A stretch of 64,000 nt of DNA from a virus: positions 1-64,000 of IMG/VR virus record IMGVR_UViG_3300037722_000409, one strand, 5' to 3'. The notes beneath the pieces are model-generated. The model was not told the origin of the DNA and ran no database searches. It saw only the letters and a program-made list of their open reading frames with translations. Positions 3,520 through 61,774 of the stretch are shown in pieces. The stretch's first letter is position 1. The number at the start of each line of letters is the position of its first letter. The position numbers and the translations under genes are program-made.

Positions 3520-3745
3520 GCCCTATAAACAAAGGAGGTGGGCTATGTCCCACTATCACGGCACCGTTGGGACCGCCTGTAAAGGTGAGCTCAAGGGGTA
3601 ACCTAGAGAGGGCTCGGCAGACGCTGCTGGGTCCTTTTAATTTTAAGCTATAAGTCAGAGCTATTATACCTGGCTATAACTGAGCTACTTCCTGAACAAT
3701 ATGTTCTATAATACTCAGCTAGGACGAAGGAGCACGAAGGGCGTG

Positions 3746-3796
3746 AAAAACTGTTACATTCCTGTTATATCTAATTGTCCCGGAAGGGTATACAAT
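3746..3796 (+). promoter_or_regulatory. Early promoter copy 1 with TGTTAC-N5-TGTTAT direct repeat and GGGTA-TACAAT -10
   Basis: AAAAACTGTTACATTCCTGTTA is shared with 39604 and, with variation, 43423. Confidence 0.65.
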
Positions 3797-3849
3797 TAAA
3801 AGGTAGCAAAAGACAACATGGAGGCTCCTAGTGTAACACCCCACCTAAA

Positions 3850-3963
3850 CATCGCGAGGGTCGCTCAGTACAGCCCTCCCAATAAACTGAGCCGGTGACA
3901 CCGAGATCGTCCGCGACCAAGGGAGCGTTAACCCGGGAGTTGGCAACCGATAGCCAGGACCTC
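3850..3963 (+). ncRNA. Structured RNA candidate, copy 1 (short, divergent; 5' H-type pseudoknot)
   Basis: GAGGG/CCCTC and GCTCAGT/ACTGAGC interleaved stems, CGGT-GAC-ACCG hairpin, conserved CGCGAC...GCGTTAAC. Confidence 0.6.
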
Positions 3964-3986
3964 AAATATAATATAGGAGGCGCGAC

Positions 3987-38981: not shown

Positions 38982-39140
38982 GGGCTGCAGCAACTCAGCC
39001 GTCTACTTCATGCGCCGGATAAAGAGGGACGGCACCTTCCAGGAAGGGCTGATGTGTCACCGGTGTGACGCTCGGTATGGCCGCGAGAACATGGCCGCCC
39101 TGGGTATAATGGAACAGAGCGACAACGAGGAGGTGGAGTC

Positions 39141-39533
39141 ATCTTTAACTCAATAACAGTTACCGGGAACTTAGGTGCGAACCCAGAGATGCGCTACCTG
39201 CCCAACGGCACGGTCGTCACCAACTTCACCGTGTACGATCACTACAAGTACAGCAAGGGCCGTGAGGACATCACTCGGTTTCGCGTGGTGTTTTTTGGCA
39301 AGGTAGCAGAGCTGGCCAACGAGTTCCTCAGCAAGGGCGACCTGGTGGTCCTCTCGGGCCGCCTGCGCCTGGTGACCTTCACCGGCCGCGACGGAAAGGA
39401 GAAGACCTTCGCCGAGATCATAGGTAACGAGTTTCGGTCTCTGACTCGTCGGCGCCAAGACGATGATGACGCCACTGAGCCAGACGGGGAGAGCTGGGCT
39501 CCCACAGCTGACGTCGACGACCTCCCGTTCTAA
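39141..39533 (+). CDS. ssb: Single-stranded DNA-binding protein (bacterial type), apparent ATC start
   Basis: FNSITVTGNLGANPEMRYLPNG, FGKVAE, KGDLV..SGRL, C-terminal DDLPF; GGAGGT 6 nt before ATC. Confidence 0.85.
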   Translation: MFNSITVTGNLGANPEMRYLPNGTVVTNFTVYDHYKYSKGREDITRFRVVFFGKVAELANEFLSKGDLVVLSGRLRLVTFTGRDGKEKTFAEIIGNEFRSLTRRRQDDDDATEPDGESWAPTADVDDLPF

Positions 39534-39559
39534 CCTCCACACCACGCTTCATTTAACCC

Positions 39560-39588
39560 CTACGCCGAGACTAGCAATCTCGGCGTAG
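39560..39588 (+). terminator. Hairpin ending the late/nucleotide block
   Basis: CTACGCCGAGA / TCTCGGCGTAG stem; no strong U tract. Confidence 0.5.
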
Positions 39589-39603
39589 CTGTATCTTAGG
39601 GTT

Positions 39604-39665
39604 AAAAACTGTTACATTCCTGTTACATTCTACCTATATACAACAGCGTGTCTAGGGTATATAGT
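39604..39665 (+). promoter_or_regulatory. Early promoter copy 2: TGTTAC-N5-TGTTAC box + TATACA-N17-TATAGT
   Basis: Direct repeat with 11-bp period; 17-bp spaced -35/-10. Confidence 0.7.
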
Positions 39666-39723
39666 ATATATACAGTCAAAAAAGACCGGAGGAACCTACC
39701 AAAACAACCCGCACCAACGTCAA

Positions 39724-39892
39724 CATAAACGAGGTCTCCCGATACAGCCTCACCAAAGCAAATCGGGACGGTGGCAACCGTGACAGCCCGCGACACAGAA
39801 CAGCGCGTTAACTGAGATGACACAAGAACACAGATCAGGATCTCATATGAAGCCGCTCGTGAGCCTTATGGATCAGGGGCGGTTTAAATGAG
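39724..39892 (+). ncRNA. Structured RNA candidate, copy 2
   Basis: Pseudoknot GAGG/CCTC + TCCCGAT/ATCGGGA, further stems TGAGAT/ATCTCA and AAGCCGCTC/GGGGCGGTTT; homologous to 43534 and 3850. Confidence 0.7.
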
Positions 39893-39920
39893 GACCAAGA
39901 TCTAAGCAAAGGAGAGTCGC

Positions 39921-40109
39921 ATGAGAATACCAGAGTCGACCCCCAATGAAATCTCTCAAATGCAAGCTGAGATAATCAAAGACATCGATCGCCTTACCGA
40001 GGAGCTCTTCGAAGCGCAAGAGGCCCTCGCGTACTTGAAAGACCACAAAAACGGCGACCACGCGGACCGGCACGATCTAAGTAAAGGAGAGTCACATGAT
40101 AATACCTGA
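39921..40109 (+). CDS. Small early protein, tandem paralogue 1
   Basis: MRIPESTPNEISQM; AAGGAG RBS. Confidence 0.65.
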   Translation: MRIPESTPNEISQMQAEIIKDIDRLTEELFEAQEALAYLKDHKNGDHADRHDLSKGESHDNT

Positions 40110-40281
40110 CGCCACTCCCGAAGAAATCACTCAAATGGTCGAAGAGTTGAAGGCTGCGTACGGGGCAGCAACCGACGCGGCCGCCGACGCCTTAGAAGCT
40201 ATGGAAACCTTGTACGATCACCGGTGTGGTAAGCACTCAACTAAACGTGATTTAATGTGCCTCGCCTGCGGGGCTGACTAA
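40096..40281 (+). CDS. Small early protein, tandem paralogue 2
   Basis: MIIPDATPEEITQM; duplicated RBS region. Confidence 0.65.
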   Translation: MIIPDATPEEITQMVEELKAAYGAATDAAADALEAMETLYDHRCGKHSTKRDLMCLACGAD

Positions 40282-40293
40282 GGAGGGCCACCA

Positions 40294-43200
40294 ATGGACA
40301 AATTTACCTTGGAGTACACGCAAGCCATGGTACGGGAACTGTACAACGCGACCATGGACACTCTGAACACCCTACTGCCGAGCGAGCGCGACCTGCGCGC
40401 AGCTATCATAGCTGAGCGTCGAGCCTACGGTGTAGTCCTCGATAACATCAGAGCTTTACTGCTGGAGGTCAACTCTTAATGAACGCCACTCTCAAGCCCC
40501 ACCGAGCCACGATCCTCAGTCTCCTGACCCACGTGCAAGAGTCCGGCAAGGCCTCTCGCTCGGATATGTTCCAGTACCTGCGCTCCACCACGCCCATGAG
40601 CACCAAGAACGTCAACAATCTGATAAACGACCTGATGGCGGACGGCGCCTTCACGGTCGCATGGAGGTAACAGATGTTACTCAAGCTCGTCGCCTTCGGG
40701 CTTTTCGCCTACGGGTTCTTCTCTGGCTGCGCCTACCTGATCAATAAGATCAACGCCGCGCACGCTGCGGAGGCTGCCAACGTGGAGGCTCTACTCCGGG
40801 CCGCTGGATTGAGCTAACATGGAACCCAAGAGGACCTGCCCGTGTGGGTTTGACCTGAGCTTGGTAAGGTGCACCGAGCTCTACGGCGTCAAGATGCACC
40901 GCCCAATAAATCCCCCGAAAGGAGAGTATTAGATATGGCGAACAAAGCGGAAGTCACCAACCTGGTAGCGGTCAACCTCTACGAGAGGGTCTTCAAGAGC
41001 GGCAGCACCGGCTTCTTTGGCCGGGTCGTCGATCCCGCGACCGGTAAGCAGTATCAGATCACCGCCGCCGTCGAGATCGGTACCAAGCCCAAGGCGGCCT
41101 AACTCGTCACCGTCCCAACTAACTCGCAGGTGAACGACATGATTACCTTAGTCTAGCGCGTGACGCGCTCTCAGTATAAGTTTCACCTCTTAAACACCTC
41201 TTTATAAAGAGGGGCAAGTTTGAACAACACCAAGGGTGGCACCTGTCGGCTGGCAGGCACATAGCTCACCCACGGGCACGTTTGACTACTGATCACTGCC
41301 GCCTGCAACACGGCGGCACAATTGAGCAGCCAAGCTAGGTAAGGAGCAACACATGAAGGACTCAAGCAAACACGTAAAGCGCTCCCTAAAGGTACTGAGC
41401 AATCGGCAACTGCAGCACCCCATAATGCACCACTTCGTGGAAGACGTGAGCACTCACCAGTGTGAGAAGTGCCAGCTAGCGCGGAGCGCCCACTGCAAGT
41501 AGAAAAGGAGGAAACGCCATGAGTGTAAAGGGGGAGGCCAGGGCCAAGCGCCTCGACAGCAAGCGCGCCAATAGCCAGCCCCGCTCCAACCGCAAGGCCC
41601 TCATGGTCGGGATGTACGCCCGCCTGACCCGGTCTTTGAAGGAGGCGCGGCTGAGTAAAATTACACAAAAGGAGAGCAATGGTTGATCTAAAGGGGCTCA
41701 TAATCGGGGTGGTGGCTGGGTTTGCCTTCGCCCTCGTAGGGGTATACGCCTACAACATCCTGACGATCAATGGCACGGCCACCGGTGTAGAAGGCATCGA
41801 GGCGGACAAGCTCGTCTTCACCGCGCAATTGTACCCCAACGAGACCGTGGTCGAGACCATCACGTTCACCAACCTCGGCAGCGAGGCTATAGACATCGAC
41901 CTGAGTGACGTGGTCACCGGCCCTAACCCCAGCACCATCACGGTAGACCTGCCGGCGAAGCTCACGATACTGGGCGGCGGCACCAAGACCGCTGATGTGG
42001 AGATGGTGGCTAAGAACAACCTGGAGCCCGGCGAGTACAATATCCAGATTTTAGTAACACGGTAGGAGGTAAACAACATGGGTTGGTGGAAAACGGACTT
42101 CGACATTTCCATAGGCGACGAGCCGGCCGACATCGTAGGCTCTGGCTTGGAGGCTCTCCTGGCAGAGTGTCAGCTGAGGATCCCTGGGTTCACCGAGGAT
42201 CAGTTCATGGCTACGGTGTCATTCGTGGCCGGTGGTATTCCCTGCGGGTACTCCCTGGACCTAGCTCAGAGGGGCCTAACAGAGCTACCCATGGACTACG
42301 ACTTCAACTCTCCGACGGCTGAACTTACCCCAGCACTCGGCTCCTCCCAGACCTTGGGGTTTCCAGCTACTGAAAAGTGGATCGACACCTACGAATACAC
42401 CGGGGGTGAACTCTTAAAAGTGTCTCGGCTCACTACCGACGCCCCTGACATGGAACTTGACGAGCTGGTACAGAGCATCAAGGCAGAGATCATGGCTGAT
42501 ATCAGAGACGATATCCTGCCACGGTACGTGGGCAGCTTTGAGGAGCTCAACGACTCGGTTGACGCCTGGGAGTACGGCGATTTGACTAACACCAGTGAAG
42601 ACCTGCGCCAGCTCACCCTCGCAGAGGTGAACTACATCCACGGCAAGATTGACTACTGGCTGCAGGGTCAGCCCGGGATCGAAGAGTAAAGGGTTCCTGC
42701 CCCCTGGGTGAGATTACAAATCGGAGGATCGTATGAACATCACCACGAAAACCATGCTTGCCACCGCCTTGGCCACCCTTGACAGCTCAGCTGACTTCCG
42801 AGAGGCCAACACCATGTTCAATATGGCGCACCGCGCGCTGCAGGCACGAGCTCGCGGCCAGTTCCACGTGGGAGACGCGGTCAAGTTCACCGACAAGTCC
42901 GGTCAGGTCATCACCGGCCTAGTGGCCGCCATCAACCCGAAGAACATCAAGGTGAATCAGTTCCACCATGTACCCGGAGAACTTCCGACCCGGTGGAACG
43001 TCACTCCGTCCTTACTGACGCCCGCGGGTGCACGGTGAAGAAGCTGACCTCAACTGAGTCACTGAAAGCGATGACTCGGATCATCGAGGCGCTCACCACC
43101 ATACGGGAGGAGTCCAACCACTTTCACCGGCACCGCTACGAACTGAACATGCACACCCGAGACCTGGTTGCCCACATTAACACCATCCGAGAGACCTACG

Positions 43201-43400: not shown

Positions 43401-43420
43401 AGGGCGCCTTATGGCGCCCT
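43401..43420 (+). terminator. Hairpin AGGGCGCC-TTAT-GGCGCCCT
   Basis: Perfect stem immediately before promoter copy 3. Confidence 0.5.
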
Positions 43421-43422
43421 TC

Positions 43423-43482
43423 AAACTGTTATCTTCCTGTTACTTTAGGCCTATATACATTAGCACCCTACGGGTATATGAT
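43423..43482 (+). promoter_or_regulatory. Early promoter copy 3: TGTTAT-N5-TGTTAC box + TATACA-N17-TATGAT
   Basis: Same architecture as 39604. Confidence 0.7.
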
Positions 43483-43533
43483 ATATCTACGGTAAAGAAC
43501 AGGGAGCCAACAGTCAACAGTACTTAAGCCACA

Positions 43534-43697
43534 CATAGACGAGGTCGCTCGATACAGCCTCACCAAATCAAATCGAGCCGGTGGTCAACGTGAAGACCCG
43601 CGACAGAGAACAGCGCGTTAACTGGGAGGCCACAAGAACACAGGATCAATTCCGCATATGAAGCCAACGAGCCTTACGGATCGCCGGCTTAAGTGAG
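43534..43697 (+). ncRNA. Structured RNA candidate, copy 3
   Basis: GAGG/CCTC + GCTCGAT/ATCGAGC pseudoknot; AAGCC/GGCTT stem; high identity to copy 2 with compensatory changes. Confidence 0.7.
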
Positions 43698-43749
43698 CAA
43701 TGGATTACAAGGAGCCTTAAATGGTTACATTTTCTTACGAGCAGCGACG

Positions 43750-46392
43750 GTGATTGTAATCACGGTCGAGCTTTGGCCGGGTGGCAGAGAGTCTCAAAAA
43801 CGGACTCTGGCGACAGCCACCATAACAAATGACGGCACGGGAACCAAGACCACTGGCAACTACCGGTACAAGCTTAGCGGTGCTAACGGGACCCCTATGA
43901 AGAAGGGTATAGGGAGAGTGCTTGGCTTTGCGCGCAAACGCAAGCATGTTTGGGAGCTTACGCACGCGGTTCTTCAAAATATATATAGCCCGGAGGTAAG
44001 TACTCATGGAAAAGTCTGAGATCGTAGAGCGTCTCTTGGAGATCCGAGATGAGGTCAGCACCTTGGTTAACGAGGCGGCTGACATGCTGCAGCACACGAA
44101 TGCCTACAGTCGAGCAGACGCCTACTGGCTGGCACAGATGCAAGCGGCCCTCGGCAACAGCGGGCGAGAGATGTGCACCATAGTAGACACCATCGACGCA
44201 CTTTCTCCCCACGTGTGCTCACACTGCGGCCACACGTACGAGTTCGACTACTGCGAACGAGAGACCTGCTACTAAACTGCCAGCTGGTCAAAAATCAGTG
44301 AACTAAAGGAAGCTTACATGATCAAGATATACGAGACCGAGTTTCCGCGAGAATACTGGCCCTCTGACGAGGAGGTAGCTCTCATGGAGCACGCTGGGCT
44401 AGAGGACAGTAGCTGGCACAATGAGGCGTGCTGCAGCTGGAGTGACTACATGAAAGAGATCCAGCTCTTCATCCACCCAGTCGAACCCAAAGACCACGAG
44501 TACCCCAACCCGTTTCGGATCCACATCTTGACCATACGTGACGACCAGGACACCGAGTCGTTGCTCAGCACCAACAGCCTTGACGAGGCGCTGGCGTTCA
44601 TAGTCAAGTACTGATGTACAACGCCACCGTCTTCGAGCTTAAGGCCGACACGAAGGGCAGCATGCGAATTGCCCAGGTCTTTCTAGCGGAGCTCGACAAC
44701 AAGGGGCGGATGACACGCTCGTCCGCCCTACAGAACACCGGCCTCGAGGGCAGCCACGCGTACCACAAGCACTTTCTTAGTGTTCACCCCGGCTCCACTC
44801 TCGAGATAACGTTAGACGGGGGTCTAGGATACGAGTCCATGGTTAACGGGGGCGTACCTCAAAAGTCGCCCCAGTGCACCTCTATCTCGTATAGACGAGC
44901 CCATCCACGTCCCCACCCCAGCAAGCCACGAGACACGGATACCGATTAAATTTACACGGAGGACAAGTATGACCACGCCAGAAGTAATCAAGCCCGCGGT
45001 GCAGCTCAGTGGACAGGACGGAAACGTATTCAATCTTATCGGCCTGGCGGCCAAAGCCCTCAAGAGGGCTGGCTTGAAGCAGGAGGCCAGCGACCTCACC
45101 AGCCGCGCCTTTAAGGCGGACAGCTACGGAGCTGTTCTCGAGCTGATCGCGGAGTACTGCGAGGTCAGCTAACCAGACACAAGACAGGGGGGTGACTTGC
45201 ATGGAGCCGTTTATCATCTTTCCATACAGCGTGCGCGGCAAGGTGTTCGTGGAAGCCTACCCCCTCAAGGACCGCCCTGAGCCGATTCAAGCTCTGGCCC
45301 CTATTGGGAGTATAATAGTGTATGCTCCCTCGCGCAACAACGCGCGCCGGCAAGCCTACACTCGGTGGATTCGCTCTGACGGGGCAGGCTTCAACAAGTT
45401 TTCACGGTCACCATGGGACATCACGTTTAAGGAGGCACATCATGGCTAGCGGCTACTACCCGCCAGGGGTCACCGGCAACGAGTACGCCATATCTGGCCC
45501 GGACTACGAGCAAGAGATCGACGGTGAGTGTCCTCACTGCGGGGAATCGGCTCTCATGGAGATAGGATACCGGCACGAGGCGTGGGTCACCTGCACCATG
45601 TGTGGTAAGCTGCCAACCGATCCCCTCAGCCCCGAGCGCCAAGAGGAGCTCTTCAACCTGTAGAAGGCTCTCAGCCTTTTACGGACTCCTCCCAATGTGA
45701 TATGATAGCAGGAGGCAGCCACCATGAAGTTTGGACGCAAGCCCCCAGCGTGCGAAAAGTGCGGGTATACCAAGTACACCGAGACCTGCCGAACTTGCCC
45801 ATCAAAAGACGAGGTAGCCATGAGTGACAACAGCAACTGTGAGCGGTGCGGCCGCTCTATCGCTTTTAACTCCGGCCTTGGCTCATGGGAGCACCACGAG
45901 CGCGGCATCACCGACCACGAGGCCAAGCTCGACTTGACCGAACGTGACAACAACAACGAGTTCATGCCAGCAGCGCTGTCGGCCCCGGTCGTGAAGGCGA
46001 GCCTTCGTTGCCCAGACTGCGCAGAGCCAGTCACTAAGCTGAACACTGGAGGGTACGTCCACGACTACGCGGCCATCGGCGAGAAGCTAGCCTACATGAA
46101 ACCCAGCGTGGTCATGGCCAATCCCGTCTTGATAGACGACTCATGCGCGGAGATAATGGTGACCGCTGAGGTGGGATCGTACGACACAACGGAGCTCGTC
46201 CCTATGGACCACCGCGTACCTGTAAACGCGACCATTAAGTTCGCCGCGGTCAACGCCGCTATGGTCGTATACTTTCAGGAAGAGCTAGACCGAAGTCCCG
46301 ACTGGGTTGAGAGAGACTGGGCCACGGTACGCTGGCACGGTGAGCGTCAGCGGTGCGGGTGCCCAACCTGCCGCTACCACTTCGGAGAGTAG
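43750..46392 (+). other. Run of small hypothetical genes (43750-44019, 44006-44275, 44318-44614, 44614-44949, 44969-45172, 45192-45449, 45442-45663, 45724-46392)
   Basis: Packed ORFs with RBS; several CxxC proteins. Confidence 0.6.
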
Positions 46393-47953: not shown

Positions 47954-48005
47954 CCTGGGTATAATATAGCGCACGCCCGAGAAAGACGGGCAAACTGTAT
48001 GACGG

Positions 48006-48036
48006 AGGGCGATCGAAAGGTCGCCCTTTTACTTTT
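48006..48036 (+). terminator. Rho-independent terminator
   Basis: AGGGCGATC-GAAA-GGTCGCCCT followed by TTTACTTTTT. Confidence 0.8.
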
Positions 48037-48111
48037 TACAGGCAAATCAGTACCGAGTAGACTAGAGTACAATACAACCTGGGGTATTCACAACAATAGG
48101 AGAGATTAGGC

Positions 48112-57993: not shown

Positions 57994-58178
57994 TAAACCT
58001 AGACGCAGACATCCACAACGCTGACTGGACCAAGAGGACCTGGGACCTACTGGACGTAGAGGACGAGGACGACCTCATGGAGCACCTGTCTGACACCGGC
58101 ATGTCCTTGGAGCATTTCAAGACCCTTCCGGTCTACAAGTTCAACGTCAATAAGATCCCGTGGCTTGCTGAGCTGTGA
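57990..58178 (+). CDS. Small acidic protein coupled to the ART gene
   Basis: AAGGAG RBS; GTGA overlaps at both ends. Confidence 0.65.
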   Translation: MINLDADIHNADWTKRTWDLLDVEDEDDLMEHLSDTGMSLEHFKTLPVYKFNVNKIPWLAEL

Positions 58179-61100
58179 GGATAATCCGCAAGCTCGCACC
58201 ACCACGGCCTGGGCTCGTCCCTCAATCTGGGGATTGGACACACCCCGACAGGTGGGTCAGGCCAGAAGACGCCGCGCCAGCTGCTCCACCCAAGCCTGCT
58301 AAGCTTGGAGAGGTTCAGACCGGTGTGGCCTTTGTCGCGCCGGTATTTCACGGGTCGAACGCCCTGTTCACCACGCCACGCGTGGGCAGCTCTGAGACTG
58401 GCTTTGGGTTCTTCATGGTGGATGACTGGACCGTGAGCGAGCAGTACGGGCAGCACATGTACGCGGCTGACGTGACCTTGCGCAACCCCCTGGTGATAGA
58501 CGCTGAGTCCATGGCGTGGACCGACCTCCCGATGGAGAGTATCCTTAAGGAGGCACGCGCTGACGGCCATGACGGCGTCGTGTTCAAAGACATCTCAGAC
58601 CAGAAGACCAGCCATGTCGGCACCGCCAACACGGTGGTGGCGTTTGACGCAGCAAGTGTGCGCCTGGTCTCACGCATCGATCGTGACACGCTGAAGGAGA
58701 CGACTCTAAGTAAATCCGAGGTTACCGGCGACACCCTGATCCTGCCCGAGAAAGCTACACCGGACGACTCTCTCGGTCGCGGCGTGTCTACACAGCCCGA
58801 GCCACCAGAGGCTCCTCAACCCCCTCAGTCTCAAGCTCCACAGAAGCCTCAAGCCCCGCAGGCTCCTAGGGTGGTATCTAAGCTTCAACCGCCAAGGCCA
58901 GGCCTGGTCCCGCAGAGTGGAGATTGGAACGCGCCTGACCACTGGGTACGGCCAGAGGACGCAGCCAAGCCTGGTGTTAGCGTCCATGAGAGTATAACCA
59001 CTCTTACGGCTACGCAGTCTACCGTGACGCTAGCAGACGGCGCCACCTTTACGTTGCCTAATACTAACATCAAGGACGCGTTGGAAGCGCGAGAGTTTTA
59101 CCAAAACCTCAAGCCAGGTGATAAGGTTACCTACGACGGTGAGGCACGCGTCATATCAGCCGTTAAAGAGCTCCCGTACGGCGCGGCCGCAAAGTGGTAT
59201 CAAGGACCTTCGTTCGAGTTTACCGACGGCGACGACGTGTCTGGGCTTCACCTGCACGGTGACAATAAAGCACGTCGAGAGGCCATGGCCATAAGCTACA
59301 CGTTGTCGAACGCGGCTAAGCTGTCCCGTCGCAACCTGGGTAAGGTAGCACCTTTACCCACACTTGCCACGTACGCTGAGAGCATCGGAATAGCAGCCGC
59401 CCAAGAGTGGGCCATGACCAACGTCATAACCTCCGGGTACCTGTCAGGACAAGGGGTGTGGCGTGGGTATCACCAGTTCCTGGGGCATGACGAGAAGACC
59501 ATCGACACCTTGGCGCAACTTCTAGACGATCATGGTCAAGGTGGGGCCACTCAGGACCGCGCGGACGCGACGATCCACCAACAGTATCAAGCCGACACCA
59601 TGGTGGGCCAGGCGCTTCGTGATCAAGCTGACCTCGACACTCACCTGTTGGAGATGTGGTCAGCCGCCGCCCCGATGCGGGCCAAAGCGTTTGCAGACCG
59701 TGTCAAAGTGGCCCCTGGCGACAGTGACTACGCTAAGGTACGGGACCTGCTTGACCCTCAACTTTACCGTGCTGGTAAGGTCGAGAAGCCAGTAGAGTCG
59801 TGGACCACCCACGCGGAGGGCGCCTCTCCCACCGCGGTAACCGACCCCAGCAATCGTTGGGCTCCAGACAAGAGCATGCCTATGACATCTATACGTGCTC
59901 AAGGCTTCAAGGCGTTGGCGGGTGTAACTCACCTTACCGGGGCGCCTGGAGAGGGTGAGGTCCTGCTCATACGAGAGTCCGGATATAAAGGCCTAGACAA
60001 GGCCAACCCGCCCCGTCCTGGACTTGTTCCTCAGTCCGGAGACTGGGAGCACCCAGTACGATGGATACGTCCTGGGCCGCTAGAGGGCGCCTCAGAAAAG
60101 ATTACGCCAGCCGCAGTGCGCTCAGACCCTAAAGAGATGAGTATACGCTCGTATCATGGTACTAGCAGTGCTGCAATAGCCTCAATCAAGAAGCATGGTC
60201 TGATAGTAGGGCAGGAGGGCGGCGGAGATGAATGGATACGGAGTAATCCTGAGGAGTTTGAAGAGGATATTGACCGGCCAAAGTCAGTTTACACAGCTTA
60301 CAGCGTTCAAGACGCCGTGCAATATTCTAAATACGCGGCAAAAGTGTCTGGGGGCACACCGGTAGTACTGCGAATAGAGATTCCCCTTTCCGTGTTTAAC
60401 AAGTACGCCATAGATGATGAGACCGCCGCAGGCGCGGTGAGATTTGAGCGCACCATTCCCCCAGAATGGATAACCATATTAGATGATAAAATTAAAAAAG
60501 AACAAGTAGACACCAAGGTCGTATACGCAGTTGTGATGGCTGACAATAACCTACGCAAGTCTAGCGGTCAACCTCCTCGACCAGGGTTGATCCCGCAGTC
60601 GGGTGACTGGGAGAACCCAGACCGTTGGATCCGACCAGAGGAGGTCACGACGCCAGAGGCGCCCAAGACGCCGACTCTAGCTGGCCGTGAGTACATCAAG
60701 GTGTCCGGCAGTTACACCTGGGACCAACCATCGGCTGAAAAGGACCTGAAGGAGGCTGGGTACGTTCACGCGGGCAGCACGTTCACCGACGCTGACCCTC
60801 CTGGGTACCCCAGCATCCAGATATACATGCACCCTCAGCTGGGGCGCCTAGAGGTGCACAGGGATAAGGAGGTCAAGAACCCAGAGGGTAAGGGCTGGAG
60901 TCAGCGCTTCTACATCGTGAACCCCGCGCCAGACTACACGCCAGACACCCGGGACCCGCTGACGCTCACCTCTAGGGAGCGGCTGTCAATCCGTCAAAAG
61001 TTCAATCAGTACTTCGGGTCGTACGACTCCAAGGAGCGGTGGGAGAAGGCGGCTGACACCTTGGGCGTCTCGATCGACGAGGTCAAGGCCGAGGCGGTGG

Positions 61101-61774
61101 CCTACATGAAGCCCCTCATCGACAAGGCTGACGTGTGGATGCGCATGCCACCTTCACGCCTAGCCAGCGTATTGAAGGACGGCCGGTTCAAGCCTCTAGC
61201 GGAGAGCGGACGCATGGGTCCCAAGAAGGGCATCACCATGAAGCCCTACATGGAAGCCAGGGACCAGATGGAGGAGCAGATCTTCGGCATCCCGCAGGGT
61301 AAGGCTCACCCTGAGCGCCCGATATACGGCTACCTGAGCGACAGTGCGGACGGGCACGGCTCGGCCTTTGAGTCGGACGGAGTGCAAGCCCTAGACGTCT
61401 ACGGAACCGCGGCCGTGAAGTTCAAGCCAAGCGTGAGGGAGCGGACCTCTTTCACGGTCGGAGACTCTCTGGACATGAACATGAACGCCATAGGTGGCCG
61501 GCTCATCCCCTCCATGCTCGACGACGTGAAGGCCGAGTCGACAATGGGTGACTCGTTTGCGCGGGAGAGTAAGGACCCGTCGGTAATGTCAATACAGGCG
61601 CTAGCACGCTACAAGTACACCGAGGCTCAGGTGCACGGTGGCGCGAACGTCAACGAGATAGACGAGGTCGTGTTCCACAAGGACGAGCCCAGCGCCGCCC
61701 TAGCCAACGCTTTGCGTAAGGCAGGCATACGGTATAGAATAATAGCACGGGACAAGATAGGAAAAGGGGATTAA
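58175..61774 (+). CDS. Modular protein with four tags: ART-PolyVal-like, R-S-E ART-like, YHGT (Tpt1/KptA-like) ART-like and DUF3626-like domains
   Basis: FHGS..GFF..GHDGVVF; YRAG..ESWT..EGEVLL; YHGT..SIKKHGL..IPPEWI; RPIYGYL..YG..RTSFTVGDS..EAQVHGG. Confidence 0.7.
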   Translation: MRIIRKLAPPRPGLVPQSGDWTHPDRWVRPEDAAPAAPPKPAKLGEVQTGVAFVAPVFHGSNALFTTPRVGSSETGFGFFMVDDWTVSEQYGQHMYAADVTLRNPLVIDAESMAWTDLPMESILKEARADGHDGVVFKDISDQKTSHVGTANTVVAFDAASVRLVSRIDRDTLKETTLSKSEVTGDTLILPEKATPDDSLGRGVSTQPEPPEAPQPPQSQAPQKPQAPQAPRVVSKLQPPRPGLVPQSGDWNAPDHWVRPEDAAKPGVSVHESITTLTATQSTVTLADGATFTLPNTNIKDALEAREFYQNLKPGDKVTYDGEARVISAVKELPYGAAAKWYQGPSFEFTDGDDVSGLHLHGDNKARREAMAISYTLSNAAKLSRRNLGKVAPLPTLATYAESIGIAAAQEWAMTNVITSGYLSGQGVWRGYHQFLGHDEKTIDTLAQLLDDHGQGGATQDRADATIHQQYQADTMVGQALRDQADLDTHLLEMWSAAAPMRAKAFADRVKVAPGDSDYAKVRDLLDPQLYRAGKVEKPVESWTTHAEGASPTAVTDPSNRWAPDKSMPMTSIRAQGFKALAGVTHLTGAPGEGEVLLIRESGYKGLDKANPPRPGLVPQSGDWEHPVRWIRPGPLEGASEKITPAAVRSDPKEMSIRSYHGTSSAAIASIKKHGLIVGQEGGGDEWIRSNPEEFEEDIDRPKSVYTAYSVQDAVQYSKYAAKVSGGTPVVLRIEIPLSVFNKYAIDDETAAGAVRFERTIPPEWITILDDKIKKEQVDTKVVYAVVMADNNLRKSSGQPPRPGLIPQSGDWENPDRWIRPEEVTTPEAPKTPTLAGREYIKVSGSYTWDQPSAEKDLKEAGYVHAGSTFTDADPPGYPSIQIYMHPQLGRLEVHRDKEVKNPEGKGWSQRFYIVNPAPDYTPDTRDPLTLTSRERLSIRQKFNQYFGSYDSKERWEKAADTLGVSIDEVKAEAVAYMKPLIDKADVWMRMPPSRLASVLKDGRFKPLAESGRMGPKKGITMKPYMEARDQMEEQIFGIPQGKAHPERPIYGYLSDSADGHGSAFESDGVQALDVYGTAAVKFKPSVRERTSFTVGDSLDMNMNAIGGRLIPSMLDDVKAESTMGDSFARESKDPSVMSIQALARYKYTEAQVHGGANVNEIDEVVFHKDEPSAALANALRKAGIRYRIIARDKIGKGD

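Follow-up and report, generated by a model that had tools for sequence, protein, structure and literature searches.

What is the structured element that an uncultured phage carries three times ahead of its genes, and what might it do there? The window analysed here comprises the first 64 kb of an IMG/VR phage record of 92,321 bp, rated complete by CheckV, and all genes of the phage are on the + strand. An initial annotation had described an RNA of ~170 nt with a covarying H-type pseudoknot at 3850, 39724 and 43534. On inspection of the sequence a copy is present at each of these places, and a motif scan combined with a covariance model built from these three copies finds exactly three of them in the 92,321-bp record, all on the + strand, with the following cores and model scores:

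3856-3934, + strand: core of copy 1 (86.5 bits)
39731-39814, + strand: core of copy 2 (113.2 bits)
43541-43624, + strand: core of copy 3 (116.8 bits)

The copies stand singly, 3.8-36 kb apart. Over 169 nt, copies 2 and 3 share 79% identity and do form a unit of the length first proposed. Copy 1 is, by alignment, far more diverged and lacks the 3' half, and for this reason the common unit is only ~80 nt long and not 170. We consider it highly probable that this module is a genuine, uncatalogued cis-encoded RNA of ~80 nt, situated in the 5' leaders of three transcription units that run in the same direction.

The 3' ~80 nt that are common to copies 2 and 3 only consist of an irregular hairpin spanning a mini-ORF of 12-14 codons:

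39815-39891, + strand: 3' domain of copy 2, an A/C-rich linker and then a stable irregular hairpin (fold z = -3.8)
39847-39891, + strand: mini-ORF of 14 codons in copy 2, coinciding with the hairpin
43625-43696, + strand: 3' domain of copy 3, homologous to that of copy 2 and not unusually stable (fold z = -0.6)
43658-43696, + strand: mini-ORF of 12 codons in copy 3

A GATC/GATC long-range pair that had been suggested for both copies did not hold up, being predicted in copy 2 only and not conserved.

Structure of the Core

Alignment of the three cores, 93 columns in all, gives four helices. The order S1a, S2a, S1b, S2b makes the first two, S1 (5-6 bp) and S2 (7 bp), an H-type pseudoknot, and the short hairpins P3 and P5, both proposed independently by RNAalifold, follow it:

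3856-3861/3873-3878, + strand: S1 of copy 1
3863-3869/3886-3892, + strand: S2 of copy 1
3893-3915, + strand: P3 of copy 1
3921-3934, + strand: P5 of copy 1
39731-39735/39747-39751, + strand: S1 of copy 2
39737-39743/39762-39768, + strand: S2 of copy 2
39769-39792, + strand: P3 of copy 2
39801-39814, + strand: P5 of copy 2
43541-43545/43557-43561, + strand: S1 of copy 3
43547-43553/43572-43578, + strand: S2 of copy 3
43579-43602, + strand: P3 of copy 3
43611-43624, + strand: P5 of copy 3

S1 reads GAGGU/GCCUC in copies 2 and 3 and is one G-C pair longer in copy 1, where the pair was gained on both strands. The sequences first given for S2 (GCTCAGT/ACTGAGC, TCCCGAT/ATCGGGA and GCTCGAT/ATCGAGC) are correct and their changes are indeed compensatory, since all seven pairs are kept and four of them changed on both sides. 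Loop 1, a single nucleotide, crosses S2, an invariant ACA lies between the stems, and the A-rich loop 3 of 7-10 nt could lie along S1. The invariant junction, the A-rich loop 3 and the conserved block beginning with CGCGAC, all noticed in the initial annotation, are borne out by the alignment: UACAGCC is identical in the three copies, the A-rich character of loop 3 is invariant among them, and so are CCGCGAC and GCGUUAAC. P3 is a bipartite helix whose inner three pairs are GAC/GUC, GGC/GCC and GGU/ACC in the three copies. P5 is a hairpin of 3 bp (GGG/CCC in copy 1, CAG/CUG in copies 2 and 3), and its 8-nt loop displays an invariant GCGUUAA.

With this four-helix model, 96.8% of the cells are paired and 10 of the 21 pairs show double-sided changes, although the model derives from the same three sequences, all of them paralogues within one genome. 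Compensatory changes back every one of the four helices. None of 500 column shuffles matched these values, and controls in which the 3' partners were slid by 1-3 columns reached 30-41% paired cells with at most one compensatory pair. Statistics of covariation from three paralogues are weak by R-scape standards; the analysis is confined to them because no homologues were found. Unpaired columns are more often invariant (30/43) than paired ones (20/42), which is what a recognition surface or a tertiary core would typically look like in an alignment; conservation this high outside the stems speaks for a binding partner.

The isolated stems have energies of -5.4 to -8.3 kcal/mol (S1) and -8.3 to -8.9 kcal/mol (S2), and minimum-energy folding chooses S2 in copies 1 and 2 but S1 in copy 3, so that both stems are competitive. 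The nested-fold energies of the cores are unremarkable (z = -1.2, -0.3 and +0.3), and it is covariation, not stability, that is the evidence for the predicted fold. Two alternative helices, CGGU/ACCG and CGCG/CGCG, were discarded, as neither covaries and each fails to pair in one of the copies. A coding reading of the core was also rejected, there being no conserved start or frame and the indels being out of frame. Judged from its sequence, the module is a real element, selected as an RNA fold on the + strand.

Promoters and Leaders

Each copy occupies one of the three longest + strand gaps and is preceded by the same series of elements: a G+C-rich terminator-like hairpin, two direct repeats (CTGTTAYNT, with a period of 11 bp) and a sigma70-like promoter, of the type -35 TATACA, 17 bp, -10 TATNAT with GGGTA before the latter. 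The individual elements are the following:

3610-3642, + strand: terminator-like hairpin upstream of the copy 1 promoter, -23.4 kcal/mol, with the T-rich tail TTTTAATT
3751-3796, + strand: promoter of copy 1, which the alignment shows to be arranged like those of copies 2 and 3
3751-3759 and 3762-3770, + strand: boxes of copy 1; a weak -35 (3768-3773) overlaps box 2
3791-3796, + strand: -10 TACAAT of copy 1, 17-bp spacer; predicted start at ~3803
39560-39597, + strand: terminator-like hairpin upstream of the copy 2 promoter, 11 pairs
39609-39665, + strand: promoter of copy 2, picked independently by a promoter consensus scan
39609-39617 and 39620-39628, + strand: boxes of copy 2; -35 TATACA at 39637-39642
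39660-39665, + strand: -10 TATAGT of copy 2, 17-bp spacer; predicted start at ~39672
43401-43428, + strand: G+C-rich hairpin upstream of the copy 3 promoter, 8 pairs, tail weakly T-rich
43426-43482, + strand: promoter of copy 3, picked independently by a promoter consensus scan
43426-43434 and 43437-43445, + strand: boxes of copy 3; -35 TATACA at 43454-43459
43477-43482, + strand: -10 TATGAT of copy 3, 17-bp spacer; predicted start at ~43489
3820-3823, 39688-39691 and 43503-43506, + strand: invariant GGAG of copies 1, 2 and 3, from the alignment, followed by no conserved start codon

The boxes overlap the -35 in copy 1 and in a fourth promoter of this type, and in copies 2 and 3 they are shifted upstream by one helical turn. 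Their layout suggests an activator of the response-regulator type, of which none is recognisable in the phage. The fourth box-type promoter (genome 68262-68310) has two CTGTTAY repeats, a -35 and GGGTATATGAT, and a ribosome site with a GTG start follows it at once (genome 68262-68345), with no module in between. Other promoter-like sites, of the GGGTATAAT type, also have no module.

The pseudoknot begins 52-59 nt downstream of the predicted start in all three copies. The initial annotation had placed each copy in the leader of an early operon; the + strand 5' leaders downstream of promoter-like sites are there, while the word early is conjectural, the unit headed by copy 1 being ~35 kb long and extending from replication genes through terminase and portal. 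The unit of copy 2 measures only 3.7 kb. That these units are transcribed, where they start and whatever happens to the polymerase are things that we infer. Between predicted start and pseudoknot the sequence is A-rich, U-poor and poorly conserved, with GGAG as its sole invariant block; the leaders contain 13-15% U. From the module to the first start codon there are 55-110 nt (55 in copy 1, ~100 in copies 2 and 3) of non-homologous sequence. The module is promoter-proximal and independent of the distance to the ribosome site, and this constant position at one end together with the variable distance at the other argues against direct control of the ribosome site. Hairpin scans and folding of the sequence after the module found no terminator/anti-terminator pair and no sequestering hairpin common to the three copies, which argues against an attenuating riboswitch. 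A Rho-loading (rut-like) leader was considered as well and rejected, as a clear richness of C over G is seen in copy 2 only.

Known Families and Homologues

The module had initially been described as matching no known riboswitch or ribozyme, and we agree: an Rfam 15 search of the whole window gave no match at gathering scores. With the threshold relaxed to E<=10, the three leaders had no relevant match to any family, including riboswitches, ribozymes and xrRNAs, and the sole match, on the opposite strand and to a lncRNA model from mammals, was due to chance.

Searching viromes with a covariance model had been proposed as a check. No homologue in GenBank phages was found by blastn of 39000-41000, and scans of IMG/VR anchored on two neighbouring proteins returned no homologue of the module. 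Relatives of the DUF932 protein in IMG/VR and GTDB genomes are at best 42-48% identical, and the covariance model found nothing on 29 loci of these relatives; closer ones, at 50-71% identity, are present in other archives (proteins P0002-P0013). With exact motifs composed of the invariant nucleotides, scans of IMG/VR and JGI metagenomes gave only chance matches among those listed and examined, mostly in G+C-rich coding sequence, and the four best model matches checked from the IMG/VR scans were all inside long ORFs. Nothing was found with the covariance model on loci from a further exact-motif scan. Applied to 151 sampled genomes of the Dehalococcoidia, the class of the MAGs with the closest GTDB DUF932 relatives, and to five related records, the model gave only chance-level matches in which S2 is not paired. 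Across GenBank phages, IMG/VR, JGI metagenomes and the sampled genomes, no homologue was found by these searches. This pseudoknotted leader RNA is apparently undescribed, and its origin, so far, in one genome only is its weakness at present.

Possible Action on the Elongating Polymerase

HK022-like coliphages are the main known source of RNAs that influence the polymerase during transcription with no dedicated protein factors. Our best guess for the module is a put-like RNA of this sort, which would act on the host polymerase during elongation; we rank it first, if tentatively. Host RNA polymerase would probably initiate at the sigma70-like promoter with its activator-type boxes, transcribe ~55 nt of A-rich, poorly conserved RNA and then the module, which would fold while leaving the enzyme. 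Its invariant unpaired nucleotides could then bind the elongation complex, alone or together with a factor from host or phage, and make it resistant to pausing and termination across long one-strand operons. The more specific proposal, that the module represents a new structural class of protein-independent antiterminator RNA, a functional put analogue, based on a pseudoknot and found in a lineage with no relation to the lambdoid phages, that reprograms host polymerase at the head of each long operon, we regard as rather unlikely.

What speaks for an action on polymerase is that there are three copies only, all on the + strand, at a constant distance from the predicted starts and a variable one from the start codons, and that the unpaired columns are the more conserved ones, as is typical of a recognition surface. 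In addition, all genes are on one strand, Pfam shows no phage polymerase, and a polymerase moving along the + strand would meet strong terminator-like hairpins, for instance at 48004-48040. The phage appears to depend on the host polymerase for long one-strand operons that hold terminator-like hairpins. No phage RNA polymerase, antiterminator or RNA-binding protein was recognised with Pfam and PHROGs.

The put RNAs of HK022 are ~70 nt long and form two stem-loops in a V shape, with a triplex in stem I; there are two similar sites, one just after PL and one ~270 nt after the PR start, and they act in cis on RNA polymerase, through the zinc-binding domain of beta', to suppress terminators with no protein factor (PMC9378689). 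We liken the module to them by size, position and copy logic. Both are RNAs of ~70-80 nt acting in cis, which for the module is a proposal; both occur in two or three related copies shortly downstream of the phage's host-type promoters, here predicted ones; a potential base-triple element is found in both; and in this phage, too, no dedicated antiterminator protein is recognisable. The differences are equally plain. Where put has two long stem-loops, the module has an H-type pseudoknot and two hairpins of 3-5 bp, and this dissimilar fold counts against an action on polymerase. Moreover, the units here are co-directional, each after its own terminator, and the phage lineage is unrelated. Each unit, even that of copy 2 with its 3.7 kb, opens with a terminator-like hairpin and then another promoter and module, a layout that would be partly redundant with a polymerase that resists termination, and the fourth promoter of the same type has no module. 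These two features fit a function per mRNA, such as that of a stabiliser or an operator, equally well, and they weaken the put-like reading. It also has to be kept in mind that the structure is backed by three paralogues only, the searches elsewhere having given no homologue.

The nut sites of lambda are another possible relative, being promoter-proximal RNA signals repeated in each early operon, and a single-stranded motif of the module that ends in UUAAC faintly recalls boxA, for which the consensus is GYTCTTTAANA (PMC5725501). However, GCGUUAAC misses this published consensus, from which the host's own boxA may differ, at 3-4 positions, and the window contains 629 equally poor matches, ~1 per 100 nt. 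The boxA-like look is therefore at chance level and the nut reading is left with no support from sequence, a point that also counts against an action on polymerase. No pentaloop hairpin of the boxB type is apparent in the module, the loop of P5 being of 8 nt and not a GNRA-like pentaloop, and no N protein, arginine-rich in lambda, is recognisable. The operon of copy 2 does include a candidate basic ORF of 55 aa, rich in Arg and Lys (41519-41686), with a strong ribosome site and no family match; its product is possibly a nucleic-acid-binding protein.

Alternative Functions

A function per mRNA could be that of a 5' leader stabiliser, in which the pseudoknot blocks 5'-to-3' or 5'-end-dependent decay of the RNase J/RNase E type and protects three long mRNAs, possibly helped by 30S subunits that sit at the invariant GGAG upstream of it. 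We would not call it likely, but it agrees with the fact that each separately initiated mRNA is headed by one module directly after a terminator and a promoter. It also agrees with the Shine-Dalgarno-like GGAG ~20 nt after the predicted start, which is followed by no conserved start codon and which we take to resemble the STAB-SD element of the Bacillus cryIIIA mRNA. Compact pseudoknots are, besides, the basis of exonuclease-resistant RNAs. On the other hand, the module is ~55 nt away from the predicted 5' end, its conserved unpaired nucleotides and two extra hairpins exceed the needs of a mechanical block, and no Rfam xrRNA family matches. The conserved unpaired nucleotides suggest a recognition surface, and another function per mRNA could be that of a protein operator, where a phage or host RNA-binding protein on the invariant loops would coordinately control translation or decay of the three operons, e.g., in early shut-off; the same module in three operons would provide a single handle for such control. 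This explanation seems to us about as doubtful as a stabiliser. A precedent is the operator pseudoknot of gene 32 in T4/T2, which comes close to the module in its H-type geometry (a stem 1 of 5-6 bp, a single-nucleotide loop over a stem 2 of 7 bp, and a loop 3 of 7-10 nt) and is also found in a phage 5' leader. In the module, however, the stems are separated by an invariant 3-nt junction, three copies stand on unrelated operons, and what follows is a set of structured, conserved hairpins instead of an unstructured AU-rich tract leading to the ribosome site. An operator strictly of the gene 32 type, whose AU-rich leader runs up to the gene of the regulator itself, was rejected, the leaders being U-poor (13-15% U) and their downstream part structured and conserved; the SSB gene (39189-39533) lies upstream of copy 2 and not behind it. 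Every first start codon has beside it a short stretch whose complement is found in the module, which would suit an operator: 0-1 nt before the first start codon, GCGAC at 3981-3985 and 43745-43749 complements GUCGC of the pseudoknot (copies 1 and 3), and GUCGC at 39916-39920 complements the invariant GCGAC of the core (copy 2). In the genome the two 5-mers turn up every ~640 and every ~1060 nt on average, and the complementarity may be coincidental; its topology in copy 2 differs from that in copies 1 and 3. Against an operator are also the 55-110 nt of non-homologous sequence between module and ribosome sites and the fact that no RNA-binding protein was recognised among the neighbouring genes.

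Small riboswitches such as preQ1-I, SAM-II and guanidine-III share with the module the H-type knot, the A-rich loop 3 and the conserved junction, and the S1/S2 junction (ACA, the 1-nt loop 1 and loop 3) could thus be a ligand pocket matching the architecture of several small aptamers. We think that this is improbable: there is no match to a Rfam riboswitch family at E<=10, the copies have no terminator or ribosome-site sequestering platform in common, and S2 is a long and stable helix of 7 bp, so the knot should form without ligand. An RNA of ~170-220 nt from copies 2 and 3, ending at the 3' hairpin, might instead work in trans and titrate a host protein or defence factor. Several copies would raise the dose of such a decoy, and the 3' hairpin of copy 2 is very stable (z = -3.8) and followed by UUUAAAU; yet this tail is a poor terminator, the hairpin of copy 3 is weak (z = -0.6), and copy 1 has no 3' domain and runs into its gene, which makes the decoy quite improbable. 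Type III antitoxins (ToxI-like) are tandem short repeats directly upstream of an endoribonuclease toxin gene. The initial comparison with them is unlikely to be right, because here the copies are dispersed and single and not a tandem array, and no toxin family match was found in the downstream genes tested. A new self-cleaving ribozyme that processes the leader is very improbable, even if the core is compact, pseudoknotted and rich in invariant unpaired nucleotides and several ribozyme classes are common in phages: no cleavage site is marked, and hammerhead, twister, pistol, hatchet, HDV-like and other Rfam ribozymes give no match at E<=10. Similarly remote is the duplication of a promoter-leader cassette that does nothing as RNA, or a protein site at the level of DNA, for which one can adduce that all copies are paralogues in one genome and that outside homologues were not found. 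Ten pairs changed on both sides with pairing preserved, and a faster change in stems than in loops, are not what neutral decay gives; a DNA site would conserve sequence and not complementarity; and the G-U pairs fit RNA of the + strand only. On its sequence pattern, this explanation is already disfavoured.

If the module does act on the polymerase, it would be a structurally different example of such RNAs in a deeply divergent uncultured phage, which would suggest that the strategy is widespread, and it would provide a compact new tool for terminator read-through. Should it protect mRNA or bind a protein instead, it would still be a pseudoknot of 80 nt that is ready for mutation and comes with natural compensatory variants.

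Other Features of the Genome

Several further features of this phage deserve mention. The first genes after copy 2 (39921-40109 and 40096-40281) are overlapping paralogues encoding acidic proteins of 61-62 aa with no family match, which may be very early host-takeover or anti-defence proteins. Inside the same operon there is a 250-nt gap (41103-41352) with two palindromic hairpins. After copy 3, a mini-ORF of 10 codons (43721-43753) with a strong ribosome site overlaps, through GTGA at its end, the GTG at 43750 where the PHROG 8231 gene starts, and the two are probably coupled in translation; the PHROG 8231 alignment starts at residue 20 of the longer ORF call. At 47957-48040, directly ahead of the gene block for giant virion proteins, a promoter of the GGGTATAAT type has two hairpins within the next ~70 nt, together with an intrinsic terminator of canonical form (fold z = -4.3), a layout that recalls PR'-tR' of lambda (Q-type late antitermination) or a small RNA gene.

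The phage also carries genes for hypermodified DNA and giant injected enzyme polyproteins. The giant polyvalent proteins are encoded at 58175-61774 of the window and at genome 61781-66529 and 75600-81173; Pfam recognises in them ART-PolyVal/ADP-ribosyltransferase-like (a weak match), SNF2 helicase, topoisomerase IB and Nudix domains, as well as a methylase remnant and a prohead protease. Finally, a tRNA-Thr(UGU) is located at genome 71065-71140, after a strong terminator, and a tRNA-Leu(UAA) at genome 71737-71823.
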